DNA of 64,000 nt from a virus (taxonomy: Duplodnaviria; Heunggongvirae; Uroviricota; Caudoviricetes), in IMG/VR virus record IMGVR_UViG_3300013126_000009; one strand, 5' to 3'. The notes beneath the pieces are model-generated. The model did not search any database. It worked only from the letters and a program-made list of their open reading frames with translations, and had not been told where the DNA came from. Every line of letters begins with the position of its first letter. The first letter of the stretch is position 1. This document shows positions 47,023 through 63,656 of the stretch, one piece after another. The position numbers were made by a program, and so were the translations under genes.

Positions 47023-47372
47023 TTATTGAACGCCCGTTCAAAGGCTTCCTGTATTATGTGTATTAACCATACAATACCACCAGCAAACATACCATCCAAA
47101 AATATCTTACCAACGAATAATAACATATCATAATTCATTGGTAAGAACATACCAATCTCTGTCATTGGTGTATTGATATTGAACTTCTGAAAAACCATCG
47201 ATAGACCAAAACCAACCCAAACACTAAGACACATAGGGCAACTGAAAAGTTTTCCAAAGAACGTTGGGCTTTGCGCATCCCAAAAATCTCTCCAATTCTG
47301 AAAGATACTACCGAATACCAATATATTGGTTATTCCGTATGCTATTATACTGTAAACAAATATTAATTCCAT
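47016..47372 (-). CDS. membrane protein with CPMC motif (DUF1360-like)
   Basis: FGKLFSCPMCLSVWVGF; three hydrophobic segments. Confidence 0.6.
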   Translation of the reverse strand: MELIFVYSIIAYGITNILVFGSIFQNWRDFWDAQSPTFFGKLFSCPMCLSVWVGFGLSMVFQKFNINTPMTEIGMFLPMNYDMLLFVGKIFLDGMFAGGIVWLIHIIQEAFERAFNNQ

Positions 47373-47425
47373 CTCTTTAATCTTTGTTTAAATGTATTTA
47401 TAATATATGGATAAGTCAAGAAATT

Positions 47426-47860
47426 ATGATAAAAGACAAATTTAGGGAAATGATTTTTGAAAACGAAAAGCGAAAAGCTGTCGGTATTTTGGTTTTATGT
47501 AAAAAAACTGATAAAGTTTTGTTATTAAAAAGAAATTGTGAACCCCATAAGGGAAAATGGTCACTATTAAGCGGTGGTATCGATGAAGGTGAAACAAGAA
47601 TGGCAGCATTAAAACGTGAAATAATGGAAGAAATCAAAGTTGATGCTGATGACAAAATTGATATCAAATATCGATATTCACAAGACATGGGTGATAAAAT
47701 GTTCTATTATTACGAGGGCTTTACAAATGCGGAATTTAAATGTACATTAGACAATGAAAATAGTGACTATGGTTGGTTTGCCATTGATGAACTACCAACA
47801 CCGCTATACCCTAAAACAAAGGAGAAAATTGAAGAGCTATGTCAAAAAAACAAGAAGTAA
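47426..47860 (+). CDS. NUDIX hydrolase
   Basis: Nudix box GGIDEGETRMAALKREIMEE; start corrected to ATG 47426. Confidence 0.88.
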   Translation: MIKDKFREMIFENEKRKAVGILVLCKKTDKVLLLKRNCEPHKGKWSLLSGGIDEGETRMAALKREIMEEIKVDADDKIDIKYRYSQDMGDKMFYYYEGFTNAEFKCTLDNENSDYGWFAIDELPTPLYPKTKEKIEELCQKNKK

Positions 47861-57406: not shown

Positions 57407-58036
57407 ATGATTATAGGTATAAATGGCACCATAGGTGCTGGTAAGGATTTTTTTGCTGAAACACTGGCTGAGTTTAGTTCAAAACCAGTTGAAAGACATG
57501 CGTTTGCTGATAAATTAAGGTTGATTACTGAACAGTTGACTGGTTATGATATGACCATGACCCATGAACCTAACAAACCCTTCTATAATCCAGTTTATAA
57601 CTATACACAAGATGATAAAAATGTATATTTGGATATGTGGGGTAAAACCGTTGGTCAAATATTACAACAACTCGGTACTGAAGCTTTACGAGATAATTTT
57701 GATACTGACGTTTGGGTAAAGTCATTATTCGCTTCTGTTGGCAAAGAAGCTTTGGCTAAAGACCATATATTAGTGATACCAGATGTTAGATTCCCCAATG
57801 AAGCTGATTACATTCTAAGTCAAGGCGGTCTCTTAATTAAAATTACAGGTGACCCCATGGGTGTCAGAGCCAAAAGTAATAGGGATTTAAATCACCCATC
57901 TGAAACAGCCTTAAATAATTATGATAAATTTACCGATATTATTGAAAATGATATTGCCAATGTTGAAGTGTTCAACGAAAAAGTTAGAGCATTTATGTTT
58001 AAACATGGGGTTTCCGTAGCCAGTTGCTACGCATAG
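57407..58036 (+). CDS. deoxynucleoside monophosphate kinase (T4 gp1-like)
   Basis: GINGTIGAGKD P-loop, FADKLR, LQQLGTE, PDVRFPNE and HPSE. Confidence 0.88.
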   Translation: MIIGINGTIGAGKDFFAETLAEFSSKPVERHAFADKLRLITEQLTGYDMTMTHEPNKPFYNPVYNYTQDDKNVYLDMWGKTVGQILQQLGTEALRDNFDTDVWVKSLFASVGKEALAKDHILVIPDVRFPNEADYILSQGGLLIKITGDPMGVRAKSNRDLNHPSETALNNYDKFTDIIENDIANVEVFNEKVRAFMFKHGVSVASCYA

Positions 58037-58131: not shown

Positions 58132-59310
58132 ATGTTTAAAAAATTAATAAAAGAACAATTACTATTGGAAGCGGAAGAAGTCCGTATACCCTTTAAAATG
58201 GACATACCTGAAGATATTAGGAAGATACAGAAAGTATTCAAAGCTAATGGTAAAGAATTATATTTGGTCGGTGGTTCTGTTAGGGATGCTTTATTGGGTA
58301 AACCTATAAAGGATTATGATTTAGCAACTGAAGCCAAACCTGATGAGGTTATTAAAATGCTTAAAGGAAAACCATTTATAACAAATATAATAGAAACTGG
58401 TAAATCTTTTGGTGTTATAAACGCATTAACTGACAATGATGAGTATGAGATTGCCACTTTTAGGTCTGAATCGGGATACGAAGATTCTAGAAGACCTTCA
58501 AGTGTTGAATTCACTGATATAGCAACAGATGTTGCCCGAAGAGATTTAACCGTTAACGCATTATTCTATGATTTGGATACCAATGAGGTTGTTGACCTTG
58601 TTGGTGGAATTGAAGACCTTAAAAAAGGTATTATTCGAACGGTTGGTGACCCATCTGAACGATTTGAAGAGGACAAGCTAAGAGTGTTAAGAGCTATTAG
58701 ATTTGCCGCAAGATTCGGTAGTGAGGTTGATGAGAAGATAGACCAATTACTAAGTAAAGGTATTGATTTATCAGCAATTTCTGGTGAGCGCATTAGAGAT
58801 GAATTCATCAAAGGAATCAAGACATCCAAATCAACTGTTAATTTCTTATCGATGTTGGATAAATATGATTTGTTCAATGCTATATTTCCTAACGTTAAAA
58901 TCAATAAGAATTTCATAGAGAGTAATGACTCAGAGTTGGTAATTGCCAGCTTATTGTTACCACTTATAACTATAAGTGACATATCTCAAATCGAAAAGAA
59001 ATTAAATGCGTTGAAATACTCAACACAAGAAATACGTGATATAACAGCTTTAATGTTATTGACTCAATTTGAACCAGATGAAATTGTACCAATGAAAAAG
59101 AAACTACAACTAAGTAGTTTATCTGATGAACAGATTAAAACTTTTGCTTCACTAATGAACTTGGATGCTAATCTAATTGACAAATTATTGCAATTCAAGT
59201 TATCGGTAAGTGGGCAAGATGTTATGAAACAATTCAATATCAAAGGACCAGAGGTCGGTAAAGTAATCAATCAAATTGAGGTCGAAAAATTCAAAAAAAC
59301 ACTCAATTAA
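58132..59310 (+). CDS. cca: class II tRNA nucleotidyltransferase (CCA-adding enzyme/poly(A) polymerase family)
   Basis: VGGSVRD...DYDL, RRDLTVNAL, EDKLRVLRAIRF and ERIRDEF. Confidence 0.88.
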   Translation: MFKKLIKEQLLLEAEEVRIPFKMDIPEDIRKIQKVFKANGKELYLVGGSVRDALLGKPIKDYDLATEAKPDEVIKMLKGKPFITNIIETGKSFGVINALTDNDEYEIATFRSESGYEDSRRPSSVEFTDIATDVARRDLTVNALFYDLDTNEVVDLVGGIEDLKKGIIRTVGDPSERFEEDKLRVLRAIRFAARFGSEVDEKIDQLLSKGIDLSAISGERIRDEFIKGIKTSKSTVNFLSMLDKYDLFNAIFPNVKINKNFIESNDSELVIASLLLPLITISDISQIEKKLNALKYSTQEIRDITALMLLTQFEPDEIVPMKKKLQLSSLSDEQIKTFASLMNLDANLIDKLLQFKLSVSGQDVMKQFNIKGPEVGKVINQIEVEKFKKTLN

Positions 59311-60117: not shown

Positions 60118-60683
60118 ATACGTTACCGATTTTTATTATTATCATTTTGATAATAGCCAATGCTTGGTTCATATATAAAAACTTTATAGAAAGAACTAAA
60201 AGTACACCTATCTTAAATTGTGTTAAAGATATAGCTTTGGTTTATGACCTCATAAACTATATTGTGGAAAAAACCAACATCGATAAAGTGAGTATATGGA
60301 AATTACATCACGATATGGATTCACCATATATGGATGTTGTGTATGAAACCAATAATGATGGCACTGAAAAGTTAACGGTCAAACGTGGCGAGATACTAAT
60401 AGAGGATTCTATAGTTGACAAACTAAAACCGTTGGATATTGGTGAAGAAATAACCATAATAACTGAAGAATTATTTGATGGTGACAAAAAGAAAGATTTA
60501 ATATTGGATAAAATTAAATGGTCGAAGATGAGAAAAATAGCCGAAAGTGACACTGCGTTGTATTTTGTTGGTTTACATTTCTTTGAATTCGATAAACCAT
60601 TAACTAAGGGTGAAAAAATAATAACTACTAGAACCGTAAATAAAATAATCTCAATATTCGAAAAACATAAGGAAGATTTGTGA
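60114..60683 (+). CDS. membrane-anchored protein, possible distant paralog of 59506
   Basis: Single N-terminal TM; similar YF(I/V)(S/G)...I C-terminal pattern. Confidence 0.55.
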   Translation: MNTLPIFIIIILIIANAWFIYKNFIERTKSTPILNCVKDIALVYDLINYIVEKTNIDKVSIWKLHHDMDSPYMDVVYETNNDGTEKLTVKRGEILIEDSIVDKLKPLDIGEEITIITEELFDGDKKKDLILDKIKWSKMRKIAESDTALYFVGLHFFEFDKPLTKGEKIITTRTVNKIISIFEKHKEDL

Positions 60684-60728
60684 TAACCAAATATTATTAC
60701 TATATTTGTACAAACAAATTAAATTAAT

Positions 60729-60893
60729 ATGTTAAAAAAGGGGAAAAAATTACAATTCAAAGACAGAGTAGAGTTAATCATCAAAGCGTCAAACAATCGA
60801 AACACTGGGATGGTTATGACAGAAAATAACGAATATTCGACAGACTTCATTATGCGATGGTTAGATTTTGGTTTTGTTAAACTAATTGATTGA
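60729..60893 (+). CDS. small hypothetical protein (54 aa), missing from the ORF track
   Basis: MLKKGKKLQFKDRVEL...FGFVKLID*; TATATTTG at 60701. Confidence 0.45.
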   Translation: MLKKGKKLQFKDRVELIIKASNNRNTGMVMTENNEYSTDFIMRWLDFGFVKLID

Positions 60894-60913
60894 AAAAAAA
60901 AAATAATAAAAAA

Positions 60914-60945
60914 TTTGCATTACATCTAAAACTTTTATATATTTG
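60914..60945 (+). promoter_or_regulatory. Bacteroidota sigma-A type promoter of the leader/tRNA operon
   Basis: TTTG (60914-17), 20 nt, TATATTTG (60938-45). Confidence 0.8.
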
Positions 60946-60966
60946 TACCATATTTAATAAAAAGCT

Positions 60967-61053
60967 ATGAAAACTATGAGCATACATATGAATTCGATTA
61001 ATTGGAGACGCAGTAGCGCCACCATGGTCGGTTATGCTCATAACTTTAGTTGA
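60967..61053 (+). CDS. putative attenuator leader peptide (28 aa)
   Basis: MKTMSIHMNSINWRRSSATMVGYAHNFS*; codons 4-17 match the anticodons of the downstream tRNA array. Confidence 0.75.
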   Translation: MKTMSIHMNSINWRRSSATMVGYAHNFS

Positions 61054-61114
61054 TTTAAATTATAAAACTAAGAAATGAAGAACCCGACCTTAAACAGTCG
61101 GGTTTTTTGTTTTT
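60975..61114 (+). promoter_or_regulatory. putative ribosome-dependent transcription attenuator
   Basis: 60975-84 pairs with 61033-42 (10 bp); antiterminator 61026-33 can pair with 61081-89; terminator at 61081-61114. Confidence 0.7.
61081..61114 (+). terminator. rho-independent terminator ending 4 nt before tRNA-His
   Basis: AACCCGAC-CTTAAACA-GTCGGGTT-TTTTGTTTTT. Confidence 0.85.
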
Positions 61115-61118
61115 ATAT

Positions 61119-61206
61119 GGTCTGGTTAGCCCGTAACAGGTTAGCGGAACGGGTTGTGACCCCGTGGTAGAAATACCCCAATCGGTTCGAGTCCGATACC
61201 AGACCC
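61119..61206 (+). tRNA. tRNA-His(GTG), long variable arm
   Basis: GGTCTGGT/ACCAGACC (consistent with G-1:C73); ACGGG-TTGTGAC-CCCGT; GGTA-GAAA-TACC arm; ATCGG-TTCGAGT-CCGAT. Confidence 0.8.
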
Positions 61207-61256
61207 AGAATATTATCTTCGGATAATATGTTCTTTGACATATTAATATTAAACAC

Positions 61257-61328
61257 ACAGACATGGTGTAATTGGAAGCATAATTGACTCCAAATCAATT
61301 GGTTAGGGTTCGAGGCCTTATGTCTGTG
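61257..61328 (+). tRNA. tRNA-Trp(CCA)
   Basis: ACAGACA/TGTCTGT; ATTGA-CTCCAAA-TCAAT. Confidence 0.9.
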
Positions 61329-61340
61329 CAAATAATTTAT

Positions 61341-61428
61341 GGTGAGGCAAGCCAATTGGTGGTGGCCGCTATTTGCTAGGTAGTTAGGAGTAACCAGTCT
61401 CGTAAGGGTTCAACTCCCTTCCTCACCG
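61341..61428 (+). tRNA. tRNA-Ser(GCT)
   Basis: GGTGAGG/CCTCACC+G; loop TTGCTAG; long variable arm. Confidence 0.88.
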
Positions 61429-61445
61429 CGATAAAATTATATAAT

Positions 61446-61537
61446 GGAGGCGCCCAGTTGACAGAGGTACACCGTCTTGAAAACGGCTAGGTCAGTGATG
61501 AGCTGATGTAAGAGTTGGACTCTCTTCGTCTCCGCCA
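61446..61537 (+). tRNA. tRNA-Ser(TGA), CCA encoded
   Basis: GGAGGCG/CGTCTCC+GCCA; loop CTTGAAA; T-loop TTGGACT. Confidence 0.88.
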
Positions 61538-61543
61538 TAAATT

Positions 61544-61634
61544 CGACCTGTAGCAGCCAAACCTGATAAGTTTGAGAACTGTAGCTGGTATCTTGAGATA
61601 ACATCAAACATTGGTTCGAATCCAATCAGGTCGA
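61544..61634 (+). tRNA. non-canonical tRNA-Ile(GAT)-like RNA
   Basis: CGACCTG/CAGGTCG+A; CAAAC-CTGATAA-GTTTG only 7 nt after the acceptor; canonical T-arm. Confidence 0.6.
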
Positions 61635-61739
61635 CATCAACCATCAATGCCTCTCTTTGAAGCACACTTTTGATATCTGATGAAAACTAGTTAGTAGTCA
61701 GACAGAGTTACAAGATTCTCTAGGGTAAAAATCTTTCTT

Positions 61740-61829
61740 GGTGCGGTACCGATGGAAGCTTATATCTTCTATACTCGTAATGGCATGTTGAGATAACATC
61801 AAATATTGGTTCGAATCCAATCCGCACTA
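61740..61829 (+). tRNA. non-canonical tRNA-Ile(TAT)-like RNA
   Basis: GGTGCGG/CCGCACT+A; ATGGAAG-CTTATAT-CTTCTAT 5 nt after the acceptor; shares 34 of 35 nt of the 3' module with 61544-61634. Confidence 0.6.
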
Positions 61830-61843
61830 CATTAAATTAAAAT

Positions 61844-61915
61844 TCTGGTGTAGCTCAGAGGCAGAGCACTTGTCTGTTAAACAAGTGGTCGTGATATCGT
61901 AATTCACCACCAGAG
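61844..61915 (+). tRNA. tRNA-Asn(GTT)
   Basis: TCTGGTG/CACCAGA+G; CTTGT-CTGTTAA-ACAAG; atypical T-loop ATCGTAA. Confidence 0.88.
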
Positions 61916-61922
61916 CAATCAT

Positions 61923-61992
61923 TGCGAGTCTTAATGGTAAAGAGCCTCCTCTCATAAGGGAAGCCAAATCGGTTCAATTCCGATACTCGCAA
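61923..61992 (+). tRNA. tRNA-Met/Ile2(CAT), compact D-arm junction
   Basis: TGCGAGT/ACTCGCA; loop CTCATAA; ATCGG-TTCAATT-CCGAT; D-stem CTT/AAG directly abuts the acceptor. Confidence 0.7.
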
Positions 61993-62007
61993 CGTTAAAA
62001 TTAAAAT

Positions 62008-62087
62008 GGCGACATAGCCGAGCGTAGCTACGAACTACGTAATCGTAATCGGAGCGGAGGATGTGGGTTCGAATCCCTCTGTCGTCA
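62008..62087 (+). tRNA. atypical tRNA-Arg(ACG), long variable region
   Basis: GGCGACA/TGTCGTC+A; ACGAA-CTACGTA-ATCGT (A31:A39, U37); 16-nt variable region. Confidence 0.6.
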
Positions 62088-62094
62088 CATTTCT

Positions 62095-62166
62095 GGCACT
62101 ATGATGTAAATGGAAGCATCTCAATCTTCTAAATTGAGTGTAAAAGTTCGAATCTTTTTAGTGTCA
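62095..62166 (+). tRNA. tRNA-Arg(TCT)
   Basis: GGCACTA/TAGTGTC+A; TCAAT-CTTCTAA-ATTGA. Confidence 0.9.
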
Positions 62167-62215
62167 CTTTTTTTTTTGATTATTTTTTTGTATATTTATT
62201 TGTATATTTATTATT

Positions 62216-62452
62216 ATGATGAATCTTTGGGTTATAGTCGGTTTTGGTTTATATTACCTTATCAAAGGGGTGGTATGGGTTATCGTTGATGTATCATATT
62301 TTAAAACGAAATATGATAATCCATTACAACCAGTTTTTAATATTATTTTTTGGCCAATATTCTCAACAAGAAGAACTATAATTCAAATTACATCATGGTT
62401 TAAATCCAGAAAAAATGCAAAATCTAAAAGTGAAATTAAAGGAAGGTCTTAA
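62216..62452 (+). CDS. small membrane protein
   Basis: Hydrophobic N-terminus, IIFWPIF motif. Confidence 0.6.
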   Translation: MMNLWVIVGFGLYYLIKGVVWVIVDVSYFKTKYDNPLQPVFNIIFWPIFSTRRTIIQITSWFKSRKNAKSKSEIKGRS

Positions 62453-62753: not shown

Positions 62754-63656
62754 ATGGAAAAAAATCGTCTAGGATATATGGTAACAAGACCAGACCAAAA
62801 ACTCACCATAATGAGAGGAATTTCAGGGTCAGGTAAAAGCACTAGGGCAAAAGAATTGGTCGGGAGCGGTGTAATTCACTCAACTGATGATGTAATATCT
62901 TCTATGGGTAATTATAATGATATTTTTGCTGATATGATAACCCGTAAAGATTTTTCAAACTTACAAAAGGCGCACCAAACAAATTTAAGAAATGCCATTA
63001 ACTCAATGAAGAATGGTATAACACCAGTCATTATAGATAACACTAATTTAGCGCCATGGGAATCTAAAGCTTATGTCAAAGCCGCATTGGAAATGGGTTT
63101 TGATGATAAGAATATAGAGATAGTGAATGTTGGTACTGGTGGTGCTTCAGCTGAAGAATTAGCGAAAAGGAATACTCATGGTGTCCCATTGGATAAAATC
63201 AAAGCGATGATTGATAAGTATAACGCTAATAAAGACATTACGATTGATGATATTCTTAAAGAAACCAAAAAAGATAAATCCGATAAGGTTTTGTATTCAG
63301 CTGTTGTTTTAGATGAAAAATCCAAAAACGAGCTGTTAGCTAAGTTTGACATACCTGAAGGTTGGAAAACCTTTGCGCATCATATGACGATAGTTTTCGG
63401 TAAAGGTTTACCAGAAGACATGAAATCTGATTTAGGTAAAACCGTTACATTGACAGTTAAAGAGTTGGGAATTTCTGATATGGCAATAGCCGTTAAGGTT
63501 GATGGATACCCATCAACCAATAACATACCACATATAACAATGGCTGTTAATGTTAACGAGGGTGGAAAACCTGTAATGTCAAATCAAATTACAAATTGGA
63601 AACCAGTTAAAAATTTCAATATTACTGGTACCGTAACAGAAGTTAAAGCAAATTAA
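62754..63656 (+). CDS. P-loop polynucleotide-kinase-like (AAA_33) domain fused to a 2H phosphoesterase
   Basis: MRGISGSGKST and IIDNTNL; C-terminal HHMTI and PHIT 2H motifs; promoter TTTG (62718), 20 nt, TATATTTG (62742). Confidence 0.8.
   Translation: MEKNRLGYMVTRPDQKLTIMRGISGSGKSTRAKELVGSGVIHSTDDVISSMGNYNDIFADMITRKDFSNLQKAHQTNLRNAINSMKNGITPVIIDNTNLAPWESKAYVKAALEMGFDDKNIEIVNVGTGGASAEELAKRNTHGVPLDKIKAMIDKYNANKDITIDDILKETKKDKSDKVLYSAVVLDEKSKNELLAKFDIPEGWKTFAHHMTIVFGKGLPEDMKSDLGKTVTLTVKELGISDMAIAVKVDGYPSTNNIPHITMAVNVNEGGKPVMSNQITNWKPVKNFNITGTVTEVKAN

Follow-up and report, generated by a model that had tools for sequence, protein, structure and literature searches.

We find that a ten-gene tRNA operon at positions 61120-62167 of the window (the whole stretch analysed here, 64,000 nucleotides of the Caudoviricetes record IMGVR_UViG_3300013126_000009) is probably gated by a multivalent transcription attenuator, in which a ribosome stalling on a short leader peptide would decide whether RNA polymerase reads on into the tRNA genes. 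We refer to leader, terminator and tRNA array together as cassette A. The IMG/VR record holding the window (G000) comprises 162,536 bp with 32-33% GC, is estimated to be 46% complete, and contains three further cassettes of the same kind (B, C and D) outside the window. Translation of the leader, stalling of the ribosome and read-through of the terminator are what we infer from the sequence and from predicted folds.

The original prediction, made from cassette A, was of a leader attenuator of the trp/his type with control codons matching the anticodons of the downstream tRNAs. Its promoter, 28-codon open reading frame (ORF) and intrinsic terminator were all recovered at the same positions when the sequence was read and folded anew (Table 1), and codons 4-17 of the leader were exactly those it had listed. 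The seven amino acids that these 14 codons encode are the ones served by array A. The terminator has a folding energy of -17 kcal/mol (z -5.4), equalled by 0 of 200 shuffled sequences, and only 5 nt separate its end from the first tRNA gene, tRNA-His, too short a gap for the array to have its own promoter. Sites of the form TTTG-N18-22-TAnnTTTG, to which the cassette A promoter belongs, number 12 in the window against 4.9 +/- 2.1 expected, lie mostly directly upstream of ORFs, and are also found ahead of other tRNA leaders.

What lifts cassette A above a coincidence of codons is that the same arrangement recurs with a different set of amino acids each time. Arrays B, C and D are each preceded by an ORF starting Met-Lys/Asn-Thr and by a terminator, and arrays A-D together partition all 20 amino acids. 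Among leader residues 4-18, those matching the leader's own array number 14/15 in A, 11/15 in B, 12/15 in C and 15/15 in D, compared with 0-3 for foreign arrays. With phage ORF composition as background (the array A set makes up 30.5% of phage ORF residues), the binomial probabilities are 6e-7, 7e-7, 5e-6 and 3e-8, respectively; the first is close to the rough chance figure of 2e-7 offered previously for cassette A. The joint probability of the four leader-array matches is of the order of 1e-25, and in all six reading frames of the genome no window scores higher than leaders C and D. When G000 was searched without bias for a promoter, a small ORF and a terminator in succession, three of the four tRNA leaders came up together with two candidates unrelated to tRNA genes, one of which sits within the dNMP kinase gene; the bulged terminator stem of cassette B caused the search to miss it.

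The association also holds in a phage with a different division of tRNAs. LR745206.1 (634,780 bp), an independent, uncultured huge phage, is one of the closest records that the public phage collection has, and probably belongs to the genomes surveyed by Al-Shayeb et al. 2020. Its seven leader-terminator-array cassettes have a tRNA partition unlike that of G000, namely His/Phe/Trp/Lys; Arg/Ser; Glu/Tyr; Ile/Gly/Met/Ala; Asn/Arg/Leu/Val/Ile/Thr/Met; Pro/Asp; and Gln, and in the last of these a QQIQQQQ run lies directly ahead of three tRNA-Gln genes. The true assignment of leaders to arrays gives the highest enrichment among 5040 permutations (p = 1/5040), with the own array as the best match for six of the seven leaders. 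The antiterminators of this phage have p values of 0.004-0.07 each, and the excess of own over cross pairing was matched by 2 of 5040 permutations. As these leaders track differently partitioned arrays, leader codons follow array content and not lineage, which is the co-variation that had been proposed as a check in phages with other tRNA sets.

Relatives of G000 were sought with a probe independent of the leader, the neighbouring gene for a CCA-adding enzyme (Table 1). One relative, L009, with 86% identity to the probe, has a nearly identical cassette, and in another, the 152-kb record G001 (57% protein identity via the same enzyme), all four cassettes have homologues. Searching by pattern brought in G007, which has three cassettes, and two partial contigs; the 18-nt leader pattern is necessarily common to all relatives recovered with it, whereas G001 was found independently of the leader. 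Homologues of leader A with the ORF in frame are present in L009, G001, G007 and L059. Substitutions and in-frame insertions in the control run of relatives remain within the alphabet of the array, such that 18/18 residues are in alphabet for leader A of G007 and 20/20 for that of L059, which has an additional Ile-Met-Asn-Met in frame. Every cassette has its ATG in an A-rich context, and the ORF ends 20-43 nt ahead of the terminator. Two observations on G001 concern its genetic code: it has two tRNAs with the amber-suppressor anticodon CTA (L055-L058; record 47335-47483), and its leader C (at 90924) has an in-frame TAG where G000 has a Tyr codon, which suggests that TAG is recoded in this phage.

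The frame and the alphabet are kept in these relatives, and the helices are kept through changes on both strands. Terminator stems are wholly different among relatives, with region 2, the leader segment that would act as antiterminator, altered in step. In family A, the region 2/terminator pair GGTCGG/CCGACC becomes GGTCAG/CTGACC; in family C, CCGAAGG/CCTTCGG becomes CCAAAGG/CCTTTGG and then GGTCGAG/CTCGACC; and in family D, CTGGGC/GCCCAG becomes CACTGAG/CTCAGTG. The best partner of each region 2 is its own terminator: own pairings sum to -144.8 kcal/mol versus -91.6 +/- 8.4 for permuted ones, and 0 of 20,000 permutations did as well. The putative trp/his-style attenuator first read from a single leader is hereby found in four replicates within one genome, conserved in relatives, with compensatory changes in its helices and leaders that co-vary with their arrays.

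These results bear on the reading that the leader RNA works without translation, either by binding tRNAs directly as a multi-specifier relative of the T-box or as a small RNA, or that the peptide itself is the product. A terminated leader transcript would be about 160 nt long, and small RNAs and peptides derived from attenuators are known in other bacteria (rnTrpL, peTrpL). However, the ATG and the ORF are kept in every cassette, length differences among relatives are in frame, no Rfam match to the T-box or to another riboswitch was found at cassette A, and the signal lies in an amino-acid alphabet and a reading frame, not in a conserved RNA fold. We regard a switch of this kind, or a function vested in the RNA or peptide, as very improbable, and favor an attenuator worked by a translating ribosome.

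How such an attenuator might switch can be followed in the predicted folds of cassette A. Both helices originally proposed for the leader, 60975-84 with 61033-42 and 60994-61000 with 61025-31, are present in the minimum-free-energy fold (z -1.96). The alternative partner of region 2 is the 5' arm of the terminator: GGTCGG (61026-31) pairs with CCGACC (61084-89) at -11.7 kcal/mol, versus -5.5 +/- 2.1 for shuffled sequences (p = 0.008). When the region 2/terminator duplexes of 11 leaders from three genomes were each compared with 1000 shuffles, the p values ranged from 0.003 to 0.12, for a Fisher combined value of 1e-9, and in all 11 leaders region 2 starts 3-8 codons past the control run. Full-length equilibrium folds were uninformative, and we folded instead the nascent transcript, cut just before the 3' arm of the terminator, with the ribosome modelled as a masked footprint of 30 nt. 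With codons 1-15 of leader A in the A site of the ribosome, the 5' arm of the terminator is predicted to be paired with region 2 (P = 0.74); with the ribosome on codons 17-27, over region 2, the arm is predicted to be free (P 0.02-0.15); and without a ribosome, region 1 would sequester region 2 (P = 0.13). About 9-10 of the 11 leaders have a similar profile, the arm being sequestered with P ~0.7 in the one state and free with P 0.02-0.3 in the other. On the nascent transcript of cassette A, the antiterminator is predicted only while the ribosome is on the control codons.

We therefore suggest, from codons and modelled folds, the following course of events. Transcription would start from the Bacteroidota-type promoter and a ribosome would begin on the 28-codon leader. 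A shortage of charged tRNA for Met, Ser, Ile, His, Asn, Trp or Arg would slow decoding at codons 4 to about 15 and stall the ribosome, leaving GGTCGG of region 2 free to pair with CCGACC once this is transcribed, and RNA polymerase would read into the tRNA genes. With rapid decoding, the ribosome would lie over region 2 during synthesis of the terminator, the hairpin would form, and transcription would stop at about 61110. As a stall at any control codon would favor read-through, the leader could act as an OR gate over ten tRNAs. Because the products are the very tRNAs that read the control codons, the circuit would amount to negative feedback on tRNA supply: as tRNAs accumulate, the leader would be translated faster and termination would resume.

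Transcript data touch on the same region. A 176-nt contig from RNA libraries covers 60970-61146, that is, the leader, the terminator and the beginning of tRNA-His, and further RNA contigs cover 61125-61448 and 61921-62109, with none on 60700-60969 or past 62110. They come from two marine metatranscriptome runs of one study; contigs of this sort cannot show 3' ends, and stretches without cover in the RNA libraries prove nothing. The bridging contig is a weak hint of a read-through transcript.

Several observations weigh against the attenuator, or limit how far it can be taken. In full-length folds at equilibrium the terminator is always favoured, with P of at least 0.87 in every state of the ribosome mask, which leaves a kinetic switch as the only workable kind. 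With 6-9 bp the antiterminators are short, the mask profiles of the leaders G001_A and G000_B are weak, and cassettes C and D form the antiterminator even without a ribosome (P = 0.70). The match between leader and array holds at the level of the amino acid or codon box: the leader codons CTC, GTC and GGC in other cassettes need four-way wobble by the phage tRNA. There are only 1-3 leader codons per tRNA, so sensitivity to any one tRNA may be low. A motif found past the terminators or first tRNAs (described below) might be an internal promoter, in which case some genes of each array would be transcribed whatever the attenuator does. The RNA contigs are from one study and could include DNA carry-over. 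Finally, tRNA arrays also occur without such leaders, in the crAss-like phages DAC15 and cr111_1; these phages serve as a negative control and mean that the device is not universal.

The equilibrium folds are also what could be cited for the absence of any regulatory link, that is, for a constitutively leaky terminator, or an insulator for the upstream genes, next to a chance or unrelated mini-gene. In the same vein, a chance ORF of similar length does occur on the opposite strand; this 54-amino-acid minus-strand ORF overlaps leader A and was rejected as a gene, as its ends are not conserved in relatives. Such a reading would have to accommodate the joint match probability over four leaders, the replication of the cassettes in G001, G007 and LR745206.1 (permutation p of at most 2e-4) and an antiterminator that co-varies with its terminator. 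We consider it strongly disfavoured and hardly credible as an account of cassette A, and retain the ribosome-stalling attenuator.

Table 1. Features of cassette A and its neighbourhood (window positions) and of cassettes B-D (positions in the genome record)
Feature	Position	Strand	Description
CCA-adding enzyme gene	58132-59310		PolyA_pol head domain, E = 4e-39
dNMP kinase gene	57407-58036
Bacteroidota-type promoter	60914..60945	+	-33 TTTG, 60914-17; -7 TATATTTG, 60938-45; predicted transcription start near 60951
Leader ORF	60967..61053	+	28 sense codons and TGA; A-rich upstream, without Shine-Dalgarno sequence; translation predicted
Region 1, anti-antiterminator 5' strand	60975..61000	+	In minimum-free-energy fold; overlaps control codons
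Control codons 4-17	60976..61017	+	14/14 encode Met, Ser, Ile, His, Asn, Trp or Arg
Region 2	61025..61042	+	Core GGTCGG at 61026-31; predicted partner is region 1 or, as antiterminator, CCGACC of terminator 5' arm
Intrinsic terminator	61081..61114	+	Stem 61081-88/61097-104; U-tract 61105-14
tRNA-His (GTG)	61120..61206	+	ARAGORN; 87 nt, 8-bp acceptor stem
tRNA-Trp (CCA)	61257..61329	+	ARAGORN; Rfam, 54.9 bits
tRNA-Ser (GCT)	61341..61429	+	ARAGORN
Probable tRNA-Ser (TGA), divergent	61444..61535	+	Inspection: 7-bp acceptor stem, anticodon loop CTTGAAA, T arm, encoded CCA end
tRNA-Ile (GAT)	61544..61634	+	Rfam tRNA model, 35.1 bits (cut-off 29)
tRNA-Ile (TAT)	61740..61829	+	Rfam tRNA model, 29.9 bits
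tRNA-Asn (GTT)	61844..61916	+	ARAGORN, Rfam
Anticodon-CAT tRNA, probably Met	61923..61992	+	Rfam tRNA model, 30.4 bits
tRNA-Arg (ACG)	62008..62088	+	ARAGORN, Rfam
tRNA-Arg (TCT)	62095..62167	+	ARAGORN, Rfam
Kinase/cyclic-phosphodiesterase protein	62754-63656		AAA_33 kinase and tRNA-ligase phosphodiesterase-like (cyclic-phosphodiesterase) domains
Cassette B	array 108665-109327 (genome)		tRNAs Cys, Val, Leu x3; leader start 108490; control run VVNTLVLNLCLLVV; region 2/terminator arm ATGGTCGG/CCGACCAT
Cassette C	array 112190-112567 (genome)		tRNAs Phe, Glu, Asp, Ala; leader start 112031; control run FNDIFAFNFAAFAAEEDD; region 2/terminator arm TCCGAAGG/CCTTCGGA
Cassette D	array 120996-121582 (genome)		tRNAs Pro, Gln, Tyr, Thr, Gly, Lys; leader start 120699; control run YTTYQGKQYPQGTKP; region 2/terminator arm CTGGGC/GCCCAG

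Ten tRNA genes had been claimed for array A. Nine of them stand on program calls, ARAGORN finding six and the Rfam tRNA model nine; the tenth, Ser-TGA, was called by neither and stands by inspection and by its positional orthologue in L009 (13168-13258), a canonical tRNA of very different sequence that ARAGORN calls Ser(tga). The copy in the window may be degenerating. For the odd tRNAs, anticodons were read from the Rfam model alignments, as ARAGORN at lowered thresholds gave inconsistent ones.

Several members of the array have unusual forms. The tRNA-His has a long, stem-forming variable arm, and its best Rfam match is the tRNA-Sec model (28.4 bits); the form recurs in the close relative L009, but G001 has His tRNAs of 72 nt. 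In both tRNA-Ile the D arm is truncated and the variable region is enlarged by some 32 nt of inserted sequence; this form is again kept in L009, and about 40 nt of their 3' parts are nearly identical to each other. Between them, at 61680-61694, lies a mini-ORF, ATGAAAACTAGTTAG, with a Met-Lys-Thr start as in the leaders and a similar counterpart in L009; it may be what is left of a leader that has decayed. A sequence motif, GTTCTTTGA(C/A)A, is found in the window at 61230-61240, in the genome at 108644, 116941 and 120899, and at several sites in G001, just after leader terminators or promoters, with a tRNA beginning 10-17 nt downstream. It could serve in the processing or binding of pre-tRNA, or as an internal promoter element.

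Beyond array A, the cassettes share parts with one another. The promoters of B and D (genome 108255-108300 and 120530-120575) lie in a segment of about 60 nt that is almost identical between the two; they are about 190 nt upstream of the leader ATG, with an intervening region between. Cassettes A and B have the terminator stem and the region-2 core in common, and this common module suggests that cassettes may duplicate and have their control runs re-coded afterwards. Elsewhere in the genome, at 117402-118092, there are three tRNA-like genes of about 100-130 nt with large internal insertions and common 5' and 3' ends; a promoter and a GTTCTTTGACA motif lie ahead of this cluster, and leader ORF and terminator are absent.

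The genes around array A raise the question of what the attenuator is for. A dNMP kinase gene lies near the array, as does that of the CCA-adding enzyme, and the domains of the protein encoded downstream suggest a function in RNA (tRNA) repair. Phage tRNAs can offset host tRNA cleavage, and tRNA-repair-type genes flank the array on both sides, as would befit the same switch acting as a dedicated counter-defence sensor that fires when host tRNAs are cleaved by anticodon nucleases or other tRNA-targeting defences and supplies replacements. Known targets of such nucleases include Lys, Arg, Glu, Gln, Asn, His, Asp and Tyr tRNAs. The cassettes of G000, however, cover all 20 amino acids and so reach beyond these targets, which argues for a general sensor of decoding rate, and LR745206.1 has cassettes for Gly/Ala/Ile, Pro/Asp and others. 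Moreover, the attenuator alone cannot tell cleavage of a tRNA from low abundance or poor charging, as the stalled ribosome is blind to the difference. Depletion by a nuclease is a plausible trigger, and a device dedicated to it seems unlikely to us; we prefer an attenuator that responds to slow decoding whatever its cause.

Metagenomes from lake, lagoon, freshwater and marine sites contain the window stretch. The closest phage records are uncultured huge phages, with 38% identity in the CCA-adding enzyme; no close relative in culture was identified, and a DNA-similarity search of the phage collection gave isolated tRNA matches only. Searches of IMG/VR with the terminator pattern and the leader-D pattern returned mostly unrelated matches. 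In G006, a 618-kb high-GC megaphage with a homologue of the CCA-adding enzyme, Leu/Arg/Pro-rich and Thr/Val-rich ORFs lie upstream of matching arrays; such windows are common (191/98,671) and no clear terminator was seen there, and the candidate, which is not significant, was not used.

Taking G000, its relatives and LR745206.1 together, we lean towards a wider proposal, which we hold less firmly than the one for cassette A: that large Bacteroidota-host-like phages and at least one other huge-phage lineage run a complete, modular control of decoding rate. Each array would stand behind a codon-matched attenuator, all 20 amino acids would be sensed per codon group, limiting tRNAs would be topped up, and new cassettes would arise by duplication and re-coding of modules. 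If this is true, the cassettes form a natural, programmable family of codon-specific translation sensors, and these phages monitor the decoding of all 20 amino acids.

As a rule, the tRNA genes of phages are regarded as constitutive cargo. If our reading of cassette A is correct, it is the first known tRNA operon controlled by stalling on the codons that its own tRNAs read, a direct feedback of demand on supply in the tRNA pool, and it would provide a mechanistic handle on the interplay of phage tRNAs, host tRNA degradation and tRNA-targeting defences. Short and modular, and evidently open to re-coding, the cassettes could become biosensors specific for a codon or tRNA, and they could mark small ORFs for annotation in phage genomes. 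The original prediction had left open whether an attenuator tuned to a tRNA array was already known; a full-text literature search found no account of leader-peptide attenuation of tRNA genes. In the text of the huge-phage survey of Al-Shayeb et al. 2020 (PMC7162821), the words attenuat-, leader and terminator are all absent.

Among known systems, T-box elements (RF00230) likewise use a switch between terminator and antiterminator to report the state of a specific tRNA. They bind the uncharged tRNA without a ribosome, however, and their targets are synthetase, biosynthesis or transport genes; the Rfam covariance model gave no T-box match at E <= 1 within 60600-62400. The large tRNA clusters of T4, T5, mycobacteriophages and huge phages, which are thought to sustain translation or offset the loss of host tRNAs, resemble the arrays described here, but no account of such control was found for them either. 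The pheST operon of E. coli, encoding phenylalanyl-tRNA synthetase behind the pheM leader, is likewise a case in which attenuation responsive to charged tRNA governs a component of translation, but there the target is a synthetase and a single amino acid is sensed, whereas cassette A has tRNA genes as its target.

The closest parallels are the leaders of ilvGMEDA (Ile/Leu/Val) and of the thr operon (Thr/Ile). Like cassette A, they have a short leader ORF with control codons of more than one amino acid, an intrinsic terminator and alternative 2:3 and 3:4 helices, with a possible counterpart of their 1:2 helix in the predicted fold of leader A, and in them, as proposed here, a stall on the control codons favors the antiterminator, giving an OR gate over several charged tRNAs. 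Homology to these leaders is absent in both sequence and structure, and none of the Rfam amino-acid leader families scored above its gathering threshold on cassette A; the best was Thr_leader (RF00506), with 22.9 bits against 55, mostly from the terminator hairpin. While ilvGMEDA and thr attenuation controls biosynthetic enzymes, cassette A would control tRNA genes, with control codons that list the anticodons of its own products. Unlike those leaders, the phage cassettes would sense up to seven amino acids and ten tRNAs per leader, and they are phage-borne, of Bacteroidota type and modular, with four to seven cassettes per genome.

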